The notes under the pieces were generated by a model. That model saw only the letters and a list, made by a program, of their open reading frames with translations, made no database searches and was not told where the DNA came from. This document shows, piece by piece, positions 1,749 to 21,612 of a DNA stretch of 64,000 bases. Source of the DNA: Lachnospiraceae bacterium. Its GTDB lineage: Bacteria; Bacillota; Clostridia; Lachnospirales; Lachnospiraceae. Both the position numbers and the translations under genes were made by a program. The DNA lies in contig JBGVIB010000047.1 of assembly GCA_045122835.1 (NCBI GenBank), positions 38,036-102,035 of the forward strand, given 5' to 3'. How positions within the stretch are numbered: the stretch's first letter is position 1; every line of letters begins with the position of its first letter.

Positions 1749-2249
1749 ATGGCATTATTACAAGAGTGGCGTGAGGTCGCATATAATGAGAACGCAAATA
1801 AGGGTGAATTACAGAAATTTTGGCAGAAGTATTTTCTGATTGAGAAGGGAATTTATGAGAAATTATTGGCTGAACCAGATGTAGCAGTAGATGGTACTGT
1901 AAAAGAATTAGCAGAAAAATTTGGTATCGATACTTTTACTATGACAGGTTTCTTAGACGGTATTAACGATAGTTTAAAGGTGCCAAATCCAATTGAGGAA
2001 ATGGAAGAAGATACACATGTAAACCTTGCTTTCGATAAAGCCTTGTTATACAAGAACATGGTAGATGCAAGAGCAGATTGGTTGTATGAACTTCCGCAGT
2101 GGGATGCAATTTTCACAAAGGAAGAGCGTAAGAAATTATATATGGATCAGAAGTCTTCCGGTACAGTTCGCAAGGCACCAAAGGTTGGACGTAATGAGCC
2201 GTGTCCTTGTGGCTCTGGTAAGAAGTACAAGCATTGTTGTGGCAAATAA
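1749..2249 (+). CDS. SEC-C motif metal-binding domain protein
   Basis: C-terminal '[18 protein letters not shown]' is the SEC-C zinc-binding motif. RBS is AAGGAAGAGG upstream. Confidence 0.8.
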
Positions 2250-2254
2250 ATAAA

Positions 2255-2286
2255 AACTCCCATATCTCGGTATGGGAGTTTTTTTA
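2255..2286 (+). terminator. Rho-independent terminator
   Basis: AACTCCCATA-tctcgg-TATGGGAGTT followed by a T-run. Confidence 0.8.
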
Positions 2287-2373
2287 GACTAGGAAACACA
2301 ACGGTTTGCTATAGGATGTAATGCTCAAAATATCCTAGTATATAGTATATAAAAGAATAGTTTTAATACAACA

Positions 2374-3639
2374 TTATGGTTTGGAAACCTTTCCGTAGAC
2401 AGGCTTTGATTTGTTATATAAAATCTGCTGGCTGCTGTACAGGCTGAAATTACCGGATAGCATATGGGTAATAGCACATACAATACCAAAGTAAAGAAGA
2501 CCATCAGTACCAAATAATTCAATACCGAGAAACATAGTAGCTAACGGCGTATTTACCACACTACAAAATACACCCAACAACCCTAATGCAGCGCAAAAGC
2601 CCGGATCTAAGCCAAGAAGAGGACCGACAGCCGCTCCAAAAGTGGAACCTACAAAAAAGGCTGGAATGATTTCTCCGCCTTTGAAGCCAGCTCCTAATGT
2701 AAGTGCTGTAAACAGTAACTTAATAAAAAATGCTTCAGGCTTTGCGTTGCCTTGAATTGCCTTTGTGATAATTGACATACCAGCTCCATTATAGTCCTGT
2801 GAGCCAATAAGCAAGGTAAGTGCAGCAATAATGCATCCGCCCACAAAAATGCGAACATAAGGGTTTTTGAAATATCTTCGATATAATTTCCCTATTTGCT
2901 GCATGGTGATACAAAATAAAATGCCCACTAAGGAAAACAGAATGGCTGCAAGCACCGTCTGGAAGGTGGTGATGATAGAATTATTTGGTGTATGCTCGAG
3001 TAGAAAATGTACAGGAACAACTCCAAATAAATCTGCTACATAGTAAGATATGATGGCAGCAATCATGCCGGGAATCATAGCACCATAATAAATAACCCCT
3101 ACGCTGGCAACCTCCATGCTGAAGATGGCAGCTGCTACCGGAGTACCAAATAATGCTGAGAACAATGCGCTCATGCCGCACATTGTGATAATACGTTTGT
3201 CAGTGTCATCTAAATTGGAAATACCTCCTAGCATATTTCCAATGCTGGCACCGATCTGAAGTGCGGCGCCCTCTCGTCCGACAGAACCGCCAAATGCATG
3301 GGAAAGGCTGGTGGCTACAAAGATAAGAGGTGCCATGCGGGCTGGCACATGAGATCTTGTCTGTACTGCTTCTAGTACGGTATTGGTTCCCCTGTCATGC
3401 TCCATACCACAAATATGGTATAGAAATACAATAAAAAGCCCTGCAAATGGAAGGAGTAGTACATGATAAAGCGTACGCATTTCTGTTACATAATCCACGG
3501 TATGATGGAATAATGTTCCTGCAAGTCCGCATACAATTCCCATGAGAAGGGAGAATGCCATCCATTTTGCAAAAGTTTTCAAATACATGATAGGAGAATG
3601 AATGTTGTTTTTTGATAATAGATCGTGCATGTCGCTCAT
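2374..3639 (-). CDS. ClC-family voltage-gated chloride channel / Cl-/H+ antiporter
   Basis: Polytopic membrane protein with the ClC signature 'GGSVGREGAALQIGA' and Gly-rich helices. Start taken at ATG 3639 (MSDMHD..) rather than the upstream ORF-track start at 3708. Confidence 0.85.
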   Translation of the reverse strand: MSDMHDLLSKNNIHSPIMYLKTFAKWMAFSLLMGIVCGLAGTLFHHTVDYVTEMRTLYHVLLLPFAGLFIVFLYHICGMEHDRGTNTVLEAVQTRSHVPARMAPLIFVATSLSHAFGGSVGREGAALQIGASIGNMLGGISNLDDTDKRIITMCGMSALFSALFGTPVAAAIFSMEVASVGVIYYGAMIPGMIAAIISYYVADLFGVVPVHFLLEHTPNNSIITTFQTVLAAILFSLVGILFCITMQQIGKLYRRYFKNPYVRIFVGGCIIAALTLLIGSQDYNGAGMSIITKAIQGNAKPEAFFIKLLFTALTLGAGFKGGEIIPAFFVGSTFGAAVGPLLGLDPGFCAALGLLGVFCSVVNTPLATMFLGIELFGTDGLLYFGIVCAITHMLSGNFSLYSSQQILYNKSKPVYGKVSKP

Positions 3640-3727
3640 AAATGAATCCAACTTTCTCTTTTTGTAATATTCAGTTATAATTATATAATACTTTAGTAAT
3701 AGTGTCAAAATAAGTTTGTAAGAGCTA

Positions 3728-3858
3728 GTTACTGTTCATACAGGACTTAACATTCATTACTAAGTTCTGAGAAAACGTAGTGCAGGCGGGTAAAAATCCA
3801 TCACCGAAGGTGATTTTCATGGATTTTTACTCGTTACTGGAACGGAGTGAACAGTAAC
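3728..3858 (+). mobile_element. Divergent short copy of the MITE-like repeat family (see copies at 19466, 27215, 42527)
   Basis: Terminal inverted repeat GTTACTGTTCA...TGAACAGTAAC. Shares the core GAAAACGTAGTG..AAAAATCCATCACCGAAGGTGATT..CATGGATTTTT with the other copies. No ORF. Confidence 0.65.
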
Positions 3859-4005
3859 AATCATTATGATAAAATTATATATTAAAGAAAAAGGGCTTGA
3901 ATATTAAAAAGGCGTTTGCTATAATGAGAGGGCTTTGAGCAAGAAACTATTTCCGTGAAAGGGGACGTTTGAACAAAAATGTTTGACCAAAAGTATGGAG
4001 GTAAT

Positions 4006-18654: not shown

Positions 18655-18710
18655 AAAATGCTGAAACGGTTTTATTTTTTTCCGAAACGAAACAGTTTCA
18701 GCATTTTTTC
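18655..18710 (+). terminator. Terminator hairpin after the MCP gene (overlaps the 3' end of a convergent gene)
   Basis: AAAATGCTGAAAC ... GTTTCAGCATTTT followed by a T-run. Confidence 0.55.
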
Positions 18711-18944
18711 TGTTTTCTCCGCTTCGGCAGGTGTTTGTTGTTCTTTGAGGATTTCAATTAATAAAGATGTTTCATCCTCTGTAAAAGATAGTCCTTGCTT
18801 TTTGGCAGCCTGTATTGCAGCCATTATCATTGGGAATAATTCTTTTGGTGATTGTCCCTGTATATTAGCAGTGAGCGTCTCTAAAATGGATAATTTCTTT
18901 TTGTCCATATTTGCAATACGAGGATCATTTTTCCAATCTTTCAT
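18672..18944 (-). CDS. Hypothetical small protein (90 aa)
   Basis: Intact ORF with a GGAGG RBS. Apparently co-oriented and co-transcribed with 18976-19410. No family recognised. Confidence 0.6.
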   Translation of the reverse strand: MKDWKNDPRIANMDKKKLSILETLTANIQGQSPKELFPMIMAAIQAAKKQGLSFTEDETSLLIEILKEQQTPAEAEKTEKMLKLFRFGKK

Positions 18945-18975: not shown

Positions 18976-19410
18976 TTAATTGTTATTTTCTGAATTCATC
19001 TGTTCAAACATCATAGAGTACATGTCTATCATAGATTGTTGTTCCGGCGGCAACATATTTTTAATGGCATCCATAGGAGATTGGCTGTCGCTGTTCATAA
19101 TATCTTGATATTTATTAATCATTTCCATGGATTGTATGAAATGAATCAGAGTATCAATTGTTTGTCGCTCCGCAGGATTGCACACAGGGCGAATGTTTGT
19201 CAGTAGGGGCAGTAAATTATCTTTCCCTCCTTCAAACGAGCAGGCTTTCATGGTTGGTGGATGACGGATGTAGTGCATAGTATCCTGCAACTCTTTATAT
19301 TTAATGAGAAAGGAAACCATGCCCTGCATATTGGGACTTGTGTACGGCATAGCTGCTGAGAGCAGCTCTAATGCATGGGAATTTAATTGAAATGAAGTAG
19401 GGAATCTCAT
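18976..19410 (-). CDS. Hypothetical protein (144 aa, Met/Gln-rich C-terminus)
   Basis: Intact ORF with a GGAG RBS. No family recognised. Confidence 0.6.
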   Translation of the reverse strand: MRFPTSFQLNSHALELLSAAMPYTSPNMQGMVSFLIKYKELQDTMHYIRHPPTMKACSFEGGKDNLLPLLTNIRPVCNPAERQTIDTLIHFIQSMEMINKYQDIMNSDSQSPMDAIKNMLPPEQQSMIDMYSMMFEQMNSENNN

Positions 19411-19465: not shown

Positions 19466-19631
19466 GTAACTATTCAGAACAGGACTGTGCTGAACTGCAC
19501 AGTCCGTATGAAAACGTAGTGGCAGCAGGCCAAAATCCATCACCGTAGGTGATTCTGCATGGATTTTGGCCTGTTATTATGAATGTAATTCATAATAACA
19601 TTGGTAACCTATGAGGGAACTGAATAGTTAC
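19466..19631 (+). mobile_element. MITE-like non-coding repeat, 166-bp copy, flanked by a perfect 8-bp direct duplication
   Basis: TIR GTAACTATTCAG...CTGAATAGTTAC. Flanks are GAAAATAT (19458-19465) and GAAAATAT (19632-19639). Nested hairpins. No ORF. Confidence 0.8.
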
Positions 19632-19736
19632 GAAAATATTTATTTTCTACAATTAACAGAAACCGTCTTAATGCATATATATGTAGTAATTTAAAAAACT
19701 ATGAATAGCAATCTAAAGGCAGGAAAGGAAATAAAT

Positions 19737-19874
19737 ATGGGATTAAATATGAGATTGATTGAAGATGAAAGTTCTATTTATGAGATTGATGAAGAATGTA
19801 TTCGCCGGCAATTGGAAGAAAGAGAAAATGCACTGCCGGAACTGGTAAAAACTGAGGTTGAATCCAAAAAATAA
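19737..19874 (+). CDS. Possible 45-aa acidic micro-protein (MGLNMRLIEDESSIYEIDEECIRRQLEERENALPELVKTEVESKK)
   Basis: Below the ORF-track cutoff. AGGAAAGGAA purine-rich RBS 7 nt upstream. Ends immediately before the 19877-19902 terminator palindrome. Confidence 0.35.
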   Translation: MGLNMRLIEDESSIYEIDEECIRRQLEERENALPELVKTEVESKK

Positions 19875-19876
19875 AG

Positions 19877-19902
19877 GGCTGCTACAGAATTCTGTAGCAG
19901 CC
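19877..19902. terminator. Bidirectional terminator palindrome
   Basis: Perfect palindrome GGCTGCTACAGAATTCTGTAGCAGCC. A/T-runs on both sides (minus-strand reading gives a T-run after the stem). Confidence 0.7.
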
Positions 19903-19932: not shown

Positions 19933-20163
19933 TTAGCAGAAAGAACCACCATGGTTTCCGCCACCGCAGCAGCAGAGTAAAAGGATAATCCAGATGATGC
20001 TTCCACAGCCGTTGTTTCCATCACAGCCACAGCTTCCGCCGATGCCGGAACCGTTACAACCGCCGCCACAGCAGCAGAGTAAAAGAATAATCCAGATAAT
20101 ATTTCCACATCCATTGTTTCCTTCGCAGCCGCAGCCGCAGTTTGTTGCAGCGAGATCACTCAT
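19933..20163 (-). CDS. Cys/Gly-rich tandem-repeat micro-protein (76 aa) with two short hydrophobic IIWIILLLCCC segments
   Basis: MSDLAATNCGCGCEGNNGCGNIIWIILLLCCCGGGCNGSGIGGSCGCDGNNGCGSIIWIILLLCCCGGGNHGGSFC. GGAGG RBS 8 nt upstream of ATG 20163. Terminator immediately downstream. Confidence 0.7.
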   Translation of the reverse strand: MSDLAATNCGCGCEGNNGCGNIIWIILLLCCCGGGCNGSGIGGSCGCDGNNGCGSIIWIILLLCCCGGGNHGGSFC

Positions 20164-20338
20164 AATTTTGAGCCTCCATGTTTTATTAAGGTTATACTTC
20201 ATAATATGGAGAGTGCTTGGATATATTTCCTATTTTTCAAAAATTTTTTTTGCTTATTTGAAATATCTGTGTTATACTGTGACAAGCAGAAAGATATTTA
20301 TCATCAAACTGACTACATTAAAGGAGAGGATATTTGCC

Positions 20339-20575
20339 ATGGCAGAAGTAATGATTCAATTACCGGATACAGATTCCATTAAGGCTTTCAACAGATTAGC
20401 TTGCCAGCTTGCCTGTGATTTAGATGTTGAGCAGGGAAGATTTTGCGTAGATGCAAAGTCAATTCTGGGACTTTACAGCATGGATTTAACTAAGCAAGTG
20501 AAATTAGTAATTCATGATGAGGATGAAGGCGCACAAAAAGCTATCGATTTGTTAAAAGATTTCATATGTGAATAA
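20339..20575 (+). CDS. HPr-like protein lacking the His15 phosphorylation site
   Basis: 78 aa, alignable by eye with the ptsH product at 8697. GIHARPA is replaced by DSIKAFN and the Ser46-region 'DAKSILGLYSM' is retained. AAAGGAGAGGA RBS. The upstream ORF-track extension is rejected. Confidence 0.75.
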   Translation: MAEVMIQLPDTDSIKAFNRLACQLACDLDVEQGRFCVDAKSILGLYSMDLTKQVKLVIHDEDEGAQKAIDLLKDFICE

Positions 20576-20591
20576 TTTATTGGTAGAATAA

Positions 20592-20627
20592 AAAGAAGAA
20601 GCTGCATTTTGTAGCTTCTTCTTTTTA
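20592..20627 (+). terminator. Rho-independent terminator
   Basis: AGAAGAAGCTGC-atttt-GTAGCTTCTTCT followed by a T-run. Confidence 0.8.
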
Positions 20628-20721
20628 TTATGATGAAAGGTAACTATGAACGTTCTATTTTTGCCGAACAAGCTATATATGCATATAATAAGAGGTAAGA
20701 TAGTTCGGGAGTGGAAACATA

Positions 20722-21612
20722 ATGGAAGCAGTTCGAAAACAACTCCATGCAGAGTATGCGAAACAACATAATCTGACAGGGAAAAATATTACCGTTGCAG
20801 TTCTAGATTCAGGAGTGTGGGGAGGGCATCCTGATTTATATGATAGATTATTATTCTTTAATGATTTAGTGAAGCATAATAAAAAGCCATATGATGACAA
20901 TTCTCATGGTTCTCATGTCTCTGGCATTATTTGTGGTACAGGTAAAATGTCAAGGGGACGCTATCAGGGAATAGCGCCAGAAAGTCGGCTGATAATGCTA
21001 AAAGTCCTTGATAAATTTGGAAATGGGGACATTGAAACTATGCTAAAGGGAATTGATTGGGTTATTCGTAATAAAAATCGCTATCAGATAAGGATTCTTA
21101 ATTTGTCAGTAGGTGGTTCTGATGATTTAGATGGAAAGGAAAGTATTCAATTACAGGAAAAGGTGGAAGAAGCATGGAATTTAGGGATTGTGGTTGTAGC
21201 GGCTGCGGGAAATAACGGACCGGCAGAGTGTTCTGTGACGGTGCCGGGTAATAGCCCTAAAGTTATTACAGTAGGATCTTCAAAAGACGCCATTGGAGTG
21301 GGGAGAAAAAAGAAACAAATTTTTTATGCTGGGAGGGGACCTACGATACAATGTGTAATGAAACCGGAAATTGTTGCACCCGCAGATGCAATTGTAAGTT
21401 GTTCAAACAATAACCGGTATTATTCCGCTAAAAGTGGTACATCAATGGCGGCACCTATTGTAAGTGGTGCAGTTGCATTATTGTTGGAGAAAGAACCGAA
21501 ATTAACCCCTAAGGAGGTAAAGCGCAGGTTGATGAATTGTGCCATAGATCTGGGATTGCCATCGAATCAGCAGGGATGGGGAATGCTTGATATAGAACGT
21601 CTTTTAAAATAA
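20722..21612 (+). CDS. Subtilisin-family (S8) serine protease, no signal peptide or propeptide
   Basis: Catalytic triad motifs VAVLDSGV (Asp), HGSHVSG (His) and SGTSMAAP (Ser). 296 aa, starting directly at the catalytic domain. Confidence 0.9.
   Translation: MEAVRKQLHAEYAKQHNLTGKNITVAVLDSGVWGGHPDLYDRLLFFNDLVKHNKKPYDDNSHGSHVSGIICGTGKMSRGRYQGIAPESRLIMLKVLDKFGNGDIETMLKGIDWVIRNKNRYQIRILNLSVGGSDDLDGKESIQLQEKVEEAWNLGIVVVAAAGNNGPAECSVTVPGNSPKVITVGSSKDAIGVGRKKKQIFYAGRGPTIQCVMKPEIVAPADAIVSCSNNNRYYSAKSGTSMAAPIVSGAVALLLEKEPKLTPKEVKRRLMNCAIDLGLPSNQQGWGMLDIERLLK

Follow-up and report, generated by a model that had tools for sequence, protein, structure and literature searches.

What is a protein of 76 residues for when 15 of them are cysteine? 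The question is raised by an open reading frame (ORF), here called gene A, on the minus strand of a 64,000-nucleotide stretch of DNA from a Lachnospiraceae bacterium (contig JBGVIB010000047.1; the window hereafter means this whole stretch). Gene A occupies positions 19933–20163 including the stop codon. Both the ORF list and the sequence place its ATG at 20163–20161 and its TAA at 19935–19933. The product, MSDLAATNCGCGCEGNNGCGNIIWIILLLCCCGGGCNGSGIGGSCGCDGNNGCGSIIWIILLLCCCGGGNHGGSFC, is rich in Cys, Gly and Asn (15 Cys, or 20%, with 21 Gly, 9 Ile, 8 Asn and 7 Leu) and carries two hydrophobic cores. The initial annotation, made from the letters of the window, likened it to the YjcZ-type sporulation proteins and offered a ribosomally synthesised and post-translationally modified peptide (RiPP) as an alternative. 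Our analysis points to a small structural protein of the mother cell made late in sporulation, a hydrophobic envelope peptide that would be driven by sigma-K and cross-linked by disulfides. We assign this reading a probability of about 45%; that gene A is a sporulation gene of some kind is, judged from its family-wide promoter, very probable. Lachnospiraceae such as Agathobacter, Roseburia, Blautia and their relatives are dominant butyrate-producing commensals of the gut, and their transmission from host to host is thought to depend on spores. To our knowledge, almost nothing is known of how the Lachnospiraceae spore envelope is built.

That gene A genuinely codes for a protein, and has a ribosome-binding site and a terminator to itself, is close to certain. 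A GGAGG ribosome-binding site lies on the minus strand at 20173–20177, 9 nucleotides (nt) before the ATG, and the same motif stands at a matching distance from the start in 79/80 upstream regions of related loci. Just past the stop codon, at 19877–19902 on the minus strand, a terminator scan and the sequence itself reveal an intrinsic terminator hairpin, GGCTGCTACAG-AATT-CTGTAGCAGCC, with an 11-bp GC-rich stem, a 4-nt loop and a T-run. This hairpin sits between gene A and a convergent gene, D, and the scan scored it on the strand of gene A only. The ORF, its 15 cysteines, the GGAGG and the terminator are all present as first annotated, and all lie on the minus strand. A longer mechanical ORF begins at an ATG at 20202, and this start is unlikely to be used because the position falls inside the –10 promoter box described below. 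An Rfam scan of the region returned no relevant RNA family, and an exact database look-up of the window's protein found no record.

To what extent is gene A shared? A word-seeded search of 5.8 billion proteins recovered 248 homologues, most of which have 66–87 residues and share the layout of gene A. When 1.84 billion representatives (clusters at 50% identity) were searched exhaustively with a HMMER profile, 441 clusters matched at E<=1e-3 and 164 at E<=1e-10; among the matches listed, those whose alignment includes their first residue enter the profile at the position of the conserved start. We also scanned one genome per GTDB species for MSDL[ATS]ATNC, which matched at least 599 stretches, at least 300 of them confirmed. 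The locus counts given throughout rest on 80 kept loci out of these (n = 81 with the window included). Nearly all 80 are labelled as Lachnospiraceae or as genera of that family, including Agathobacter, Roseburia, Blautia, Hungatella, Acetatifactor and Anaerobutyricum. Each of the 80 contains one intact gene A ORF beginning with an MSDLAATNC-type start, and the frame picked out by the initial annotation is thus conserved in relatives. The members range from 66 to 101 residues with 11–19 Cys per protein (mean Cys 18.4%). The family as a whole is composed of 22% Gly, 18% Cys, 12% Asn, 11% Leu and 9% Ile, whilst Lys, Tyr, Pro, Val and Gln are essentially absent; 56/81 members have no Lys or Arg whatever.

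The first nine residues are near-invariant and are followed by a variable body with a fixed two-core architecture. Within the first nine codons the minor-allele frequency is 0.05–0.47 at third positions and approximately 0 at first and second positions, the exception being an Ala/Thr change at codon 5. Variation across the first 11 codons is almost wholly of this third-position kind, a signature of purifying selection on the gene A reading frame.

We found no paper on this family in a literature search, and its entries in public databases are poorly served by their names. Several members are called 'chorion class high-cysteine HCB protein 13' by NCBI and UniRef. The only paper found to use that name concerns Bombyx mori, and the insect protein shares with gene A only a Cys/Gly-rich low-complexity composition. 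We reject an insect chorion identity, as the members lie on bacterial contigs (300 places), where a GGAGG ribosome-binding site and a promoter of bacterial type precede them; the name is a compositional annotation artefact. Longer homologues of 130–184 residues might have been taken for fusions. Those examined are gene calls that read through or start wrongly, with extensions of miscalled junk, and we reject fusions as well. Wrong gene calls are frequent in the public databases (entries P0016, P0018, P0035, P0036 and P0135–P0178): some family entries carry an N-terminal extension of approximately 60 residues from an upstream in-frame start and others have C-terminal read-through tails. Gene A represents an uncharacterised and misnamed orphan family of the Lachnospiraceae.

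The window's protein is built of two similar units. A repeat search of the window found a direct repeat of 76 nt with 86% identity at a spacing of 102 nt, on the minus strand; unit 1 (the C11–G35 region of the protein) lies at 20060–20135 and unit 2 (the C45–G69 region), the reference copy, at 19958–20033. The IIWIILLLCCCGGG core accordingly occurs twice in the product, 102 nt apart in the DNA. The 102-nt repeat is absent from the output of Tandem Repeats Finder. The initial annotation had taken this pattern for a 102-nt tandem duplication; the repeat and its spacing hold, though not the implied local event. By a simple pattern, two hydrophobic cores are present in 80/81 homologues, which makes the two-unit layout ancestral to the family and not the product of a recent local duplication. 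Moreover, the 21-codon core of the window's units differs at 9/63 nt, of which just one codon alters the amino acid, and the two units are 90% identical as protein against a family median of 50%. That the units remain nearly the same protein despite these nucleotide differences argues that they are old and have been kept alike by selection.

The promoter offers a first clue to when gene A would be expressed. The 140 nt that precede the start codon were aligned for 79 loci (one locus being too short upstream) together with the window. A block emerged that is conserved in all 80 loci at a fixed distance from the ATG and consists of g(G/T)AAC(a/c), 15–16 nt, CATAnnAT(a/g), 3–4 nt and TGTAAA; except in two loci, 37–47 nt separate the CATA from the ATG. 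The published consensus for sigma-K, the late mother-cell sigma factor, comprises an AC-type –35 element, a 16–17-nt spacer and a CATAnnnT –10 element (PMC3789822). The block fits this consensus and we therefore read the family promoter as sigma-K-type. In 70/81 loci the 100 nt ahead of the ATG contain the string AC-N16-17-CATAnnnT, against approximately 1.3 expected; over 600 kb of fetched DNA its frequency was 0.28/kb in total and approximately 0.17/kb elsewhere. An 'AC' is correctly spaced from the –10 box in 71/80 loci. A search for sporulation-sigma motifs, which the initial annotation had proposed as a check, thus gave a clear positive result.

In the window itself the mother-cell sporulation-type promoter spans 20192–20230 on the minus strand and consists of GGAAAT, a 16-nt spacer containing CAAGC, CATATTAT and GTATAA. 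The part GGAAAT-N16-CATATTAT lies at 20230–20201, with the –10 box at 20208–20201. Compared with the family, the window has GGAAAT in place of GGAAAC at –35 and GTATAA in place of TGTAAA after the –10 box. The AT in place of AC would make this copy readable by either sigma-K or sigma-E. A scan of the window found no sigma-70-like site on the strand of gene A. At the level of the motif, then, the family promoter appears to be a late mother-cell promoter of sigma-K type, and we regard it as likely that gene A is expressed specifically during sporulation in the mother cell.

Two further features of the promoter region recur. TGTAA(A) is found 4–7 nt past the –10 box in 58/80 loci, and CA(A/T/G)GC lies in the spacer at –12/–11 in 45/80 loci (shuffle mean 4). 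The latter resembled a SpoIIID box; this identity was rejected, since the RACAR core is present in just 10/80 spacers.

What kind of protein would be made? The cores are of the IIWIILLLCCC type, 11 residues long in the window and 8–12 in the family, nearly chargeless and flanked by Cys/Gly/Asn loops. AlphaFold2, run on an alignment of 100 sequences, placed helices on both cores (residues 19–32 and 53–66) at low confidence. The window's protein had no match in Pfam or NCBIfam even at E<=10, nor in PADLOC or PHROGs. One hundred family members scanned against NCBIfam were likewise without a match, the Pfam assignment was blank for all 120 homologues among the matches listed, and the family profile found nothing among PDB sequences.

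The genes around gene A provide a second clue. We clustered all ORFs within 4 kb on either side across the 81 loci. The recurrent neighbours are limited to three small orphan genes, B, C and D, an isocitrate dehydrogenase and, in a minority of loci, a small S8 peptidase. Six loci, drawn from several genera (L068, positions 2224–3930, and L078, L029, L042, L070 and L056), have a 568-residue germination subtilase of the Csp family that ends 70–100 nt upstream of gene A on the same strand, matching the CspBA/CspC models NF040809 (E=3.9e-86) and NF040808 (E=1.2e-81). In L068, L078, L056 and L042 the small S8 peptidase is also present, divergent and farther upstream than the Csp subtilase.

A promoter of late mother-cell type, neighbours linked to sporulation and germination and a very high Cys content together suggest a component of the spore envelope. 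Cys-rich proteins are a recurrent solution for the outer layers of spores (bioRxiv 10.64898/2026.09.03.749163), and cooperative disulfide cross-linking has been proposed for CotY/CotZ, ExsY, CdeC/CdeM and CsxA/CsxC (bioRxiv 10.64898/2026.09.03.749163; PMC6101409). Gene A shares its high Cys content with these proteins of Bacillus subtilis (CotY/CotZ), the Bacillus cereus group (ExsY), Clostridioides difficile (CdeC/CdeM) and Clostridium sporogenes (CsxA/CsxC): at 20%, it lies well within the range of about 9% or more that marks spore outer-layer proteins. It also shares with them a late mother-cell promoter, at the level of the motif and with AT for AC in the window copy. The C. difficile protein CdeM bears NGNNGGNNNNC repeats, and both CdeC and CdeM are absent from Lachnospiraceae (PMC6101409), which leaves an outer-layer role open there. 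The Asn/Gly/Cys low-complexity repeats of CdeM (NGNNGGNNNNC) resemble the make-up of gene A. The likeness has limits, however. The Cys-rich outer-layer proteins are soluble, self-assembling proteins of 150–400 residues, several with the SPOCS/DUF3794 fold, whereas gene A encodes 66–101 residues with two strongly hydrophobic cores and has no Pfam or PDB match. Searches of Pfam, NCBIfam and PDB sequences revealed no sequence homology to the Cys-rich spore proteins (SPOCS/DUF3794, CotY/CotZ family).

We therefore propose the following course of events as a hypothesis. RNA polymerase carrying sigma-K would transcribe gene A in the mother cell as the coat and outer layers are laid down. Forming a short hairpin of helices, the cores would enter, or lie packed on, either the outer forespore membrane, which derives from the mother cell, or a hydrophobic layer of the coat; as 11-residue cores are short for a transmembrane span, we keep both the forespore-membrane hairpin and packing within a coat layer. 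On exposure of the spore to oxygen, the 11–19 Cys would form intermolecular disulfides and these would cross-link the product into a tough hydrophobic envelope layer, much like the Cys-rich crust and exosporium proteins of other spore-forming bacteria. The products of genes D, B and C would be probable assembly partners. Taken by itself, a structural role in the spore envelope or forespore membrane with disulfide cross-linking is a tentative assignment, for which we would offer rather less than even odds.

Several observations weigh against this proposal. The window's own –35 element has AT where the family has AC, and the match to sigma-K was judged against the consensus of C. difficile and B. 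subtilis and not of Lachnospiraceae. The cores, made up of 8 aliphatic or aromatic residues and 3 Cys, are short for a membrane-spanning helix, and the AlphaFold2 model has a predicted local distance difference test (pLDDT) score of 50.5, too poor for a fold search. The known Cys-rich coat proteins exceed the gene A product in size and do not share its character of a hydrophobic peptide. The ten large window ORFs that were scanned are all housekeeping genes (phosphotransferase system components, ThrRS, MurG and others), and none has to do with sporulation. Lastly, in [Clostridium] symbiosum GCA_023015555.1 (L081, 2830–3500), D, B and C are present with no adjoining MSDLAATNC gene, showing that the four genes are not an obligate unit.

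Could gene A instead encode a small integral membrane protein of the sporangium, working like YjcZ in a regulatory, transport or germination-accessory capacity and not as a cross-linked coat component? We consider this unlikely, though it is the strongest of the competing explanations. Both hydrophobic segments are predicted to be helical, the Csp germination proteases adjoin gene A in six loci and the small S8 peptidase in ten, and the layout of Gly-rich flanks around a hydrophobic core is that of YjcZ: both proteins are tiny and near-chargeless, with a very hydrophobic Ile/Leu core. The B. subtilis yjcZ gene belongs to the sigma-K regulon (PMC517825), which makes the analogy reasonable at the level of how the protein works; the promoter class is thus shared, for gene A as read from the motif. 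Membership of the YjcZ family (PF09680 Tiny_TM_bacill, TIGR01732) is a different matter and was rejected, there being no hidden Markov model match in the window's protein and no match in 100 members to TIGR01732, a model that is part of NCBIfam. We gathered and aligned 34 genuine YjcZ proteins (PF09680/TIGR01732) by means of a probe sequence, using only the database proteins returned, and compared their profile with that of the gene A family by hhalign; the probability was 0.6% with 1 aligned column. The single invariant core of YjcZ, FALIVVLFILLIIVG, within 30–50 residues is not what we see in gene A, with its two cores in 66–101 residues. YjcZ has one core of 15–19 residues (FALIVVLFILLIIVG), Tyr/Gly flanks and few Cys, whereas proteins of the gene A family have two cores of 11 residues, consist of Cys to 18% and of Asn to 12%, lack Tyr and share the invariant start MSDLAATNC. 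The hosts differ too: the named YjcZ matches come from Bacillaceae and related genera, whilst the 80 kept gene A loci are almost all from Lachnospiraceae. The likeness drawn by the initial annotation survives as a functional analogy and not as kinship. Beyond this lack of homology, a membrane protein is hard to reconcile with cores of only 11 residues and with the absence of flanking positive charges to set a topology (56/81 members being without Lys or Arg), and 18% Cys serves no obvious end in a plain membrane anchor.

The Cys residues are the natural starting point for a metal-binding peptide, either metallothionein-like or cluster-binding, whose CGC, CCC and CxC motifs would sequester metal ions inside the sporangium or the spore. 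The Cys content of 18–20%, the C-x-C and CCC motifs and the nearly invariant Cys columns of the alignment are all consistent with such a peptide, but neither His nor any other ligand pattern is conserved, and the loop Cys positions shift freely among homologues. No solved structure or family was matched, no metal transporter or regulator is conserved among the neighbours, and the hydrophobic cores would be left unexplained; we judge this explanation improbable. A RiPP or bacteriocin precursor, with MSDLAATN as leader, a modified Cys-rich core and processing by the S8 peptidase, is more doubtful still. The invariant N-terminus followed by a variable Cys-rich body has the look of such a precursor, and an S8 peptidase is encoded at a distance of 559 nt in the window and is present in nine other loci. 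It is nevertheless missing from approximately 88% of loci. The leader would be merely 8 residues, and even the full near-invariant segment of nine is far below the usual length of a RiPP leader. The conserved neighbours within 4 kb on each side in the 81 loci, three of them small orphans, include no maturases or transporters, i.e. no radical S-adenosylmethionine enzyme, lanthionine synthetase, YcaO, cyclodehydratase or ATP-binding cassette exporter. A fixed sporulation-type promoter and single-copy chromosomal conservation over many genera are likewise atypical for bacteriocin loci, and the RiPP alternative of the initial annotation finds no support. Lastly, gene A might be no gene at all, being a by-product of a GC-rich repeat or the shadow of a real frame on the opposite strand (19994–20575, 193 residues). 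Opposite-strand ORFs are open across the region in 57 loci; this openness arises because antisense Cys and Gly codons hold no stops. The minus strand is favoured by the start codon, by the ribosome-binding site, by the direction of the promoter and by the terminator, the third-position-only variation fits the gene A frame, and the plus-strand ORF is an upstream read-through into an HPr-like gene whose true start is at 20339. This last explanation is effectively refuted.

Our preferred reading of gene A as a late-sporulation envelope peptide gives it and its three orphan neighbours a place as concrete candidates for the spore-envelope machinery of Lachnospiraceae. Gene A is single-copy and family-wide, with a sporulation-type promoter and an extreme composition. 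What is described is an orphan family with an inferred role and no new mechanism. For annotation, the finding concerns proteins that at present either bear the name of an eggshell protein of the silkworm or are given spurious extensions at the N-terminus. Moreover, with virtually no Lys or Arg the product would be invisible to standard tryptic proteomics. A bolder suggestion is that A, D, B and C form an unrecognised spore-envelope module specific to Lachnospiraceae, with gene A as a new kind of bacterial 'hydrophobin', a two-core peptide free of charge that would coat the outermost spore layer or be embedded in it, would be locked there by dense disulfide bonds and would replace the CdeC/CdeM or CotY/ExsY systems, which the Lachnospiraceae lack. 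We hold this to be speculative and probably incorrect in its full form. If true, it would bear on spore hydrophobicity, on resistance to oxygen and ethanol and on the host-to-host transmission of major gut commensals.

The four-gene arrangement of A, D, B and C recurs among the 81 loci. None of B, C and D has a Pfam or NCBIfam match, and the database names found for them are all 'hypothetical protein'. Gene D, on the plus strand at 19737–19874 (mechanical ORF from 19701), is a convergent orphan of 45 residues that begins MGLNMRLIEDESSIYEIDEECIRRQ. It is a "IDGNSVYEIDEEC" peptide of the 'GRLIIDGNSVYEIDEEC' family, whose members have 45–66 residues, the motif GRLIIDGNSVYEIDEEC, also written (G)RLIIDGNSVYEIDEEC, and a charged tail rich in Lys, Arg and Glu. 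Gene D was found in 49/81 loci, each time on the opposite strand immediately downstream of gene A. A sigma-K-like promoter for gene D lies at 19655–19690 on the plus strand (AAC, N16, CATATATAT, GTAGTAA) with one mismatch to CATAnnnT, and the strict AC-N16-17-CATAnnnT is present upstream of gene D in 21 of the 49 loci. Past the –10 box of gene D comes GTA(T/A)A, an element similar to the TGTAA(A) of gene A.

Gene B (18976–19410, minus strand) encodes an all-helical orphan of 144 residues and lies downstream of gene A on the same strand in 63/81 loci. Its family ranges from 104 to 224 residues and is marked by the motif LQMLKAAIPY...ELQRT...AIKPY...E.E.ID. We found 254 homologues, including proteins of [Clostridium] symbiosum and Lacrimispora, each either unnamed or 'hypothetical'; one ENA metagenome entry is 99% identical to the gene B of the window. 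The AlphaFold2 model is all-helical with a pLDDT of 63.7 and a predicted template modelling score of 0.28, too weak for a fold search, and a PDB profile search with gene B returned chance coiled-coil matches only. CATA-type boxes stand 25–35 nt before the ATG of gene B in many loci. Gene C (18672–18944, minus strand) follows directly after gene B, encodes an orphan of 90 residues and is present in 64/81 loci. It has a weak match to phrog_10824, a group of unknown function. Genes B and C are both described as orphan helical proteins.

On the other side of gene A, a small leaderless S8 subtilase of 296 residues is encoded on the plus strand at 20722–21612 (PF00082, E=5e-54). It is divergent from gene A and lies 559 nt from its ATG, in good agreement with the distance of about 560 bp first annotated. 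A small S8 peptidase is upstream and divergent in nine other loci, 10/81 in total, and is thus no constant neighbour; we reject it as a dedicated partner of gene A on this count. Isocitrate dehydrogenase lies upstream of gene A in 28 loci, an adjacency that reflects conserved chromosomal order only.

Two minor features of the window may be recorded. The intergenic region between the divergent genes B and D contains two adjacent perfect inverted repeats at 19526–19600 with no Rfam match; the arms are 15 nt (19526–19540/19559–19573) and 13 nt (19572–19584/19588–19600), with two 9-nt pairs close by. Between gene A and the S8 subtilase, positions 20339–20575 on the plus strand encode a 78-residue HPr-domain protein (PF00381, E=1.5e-7) that matches only from profile position 20, apparently without the usual His-15 region, and keeps a Ser-46-type 'DAKSILG' segment. 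This gene adjoins gene A in no other locus and is followed by a terminator-like hairpin at approximately 20586–20629.

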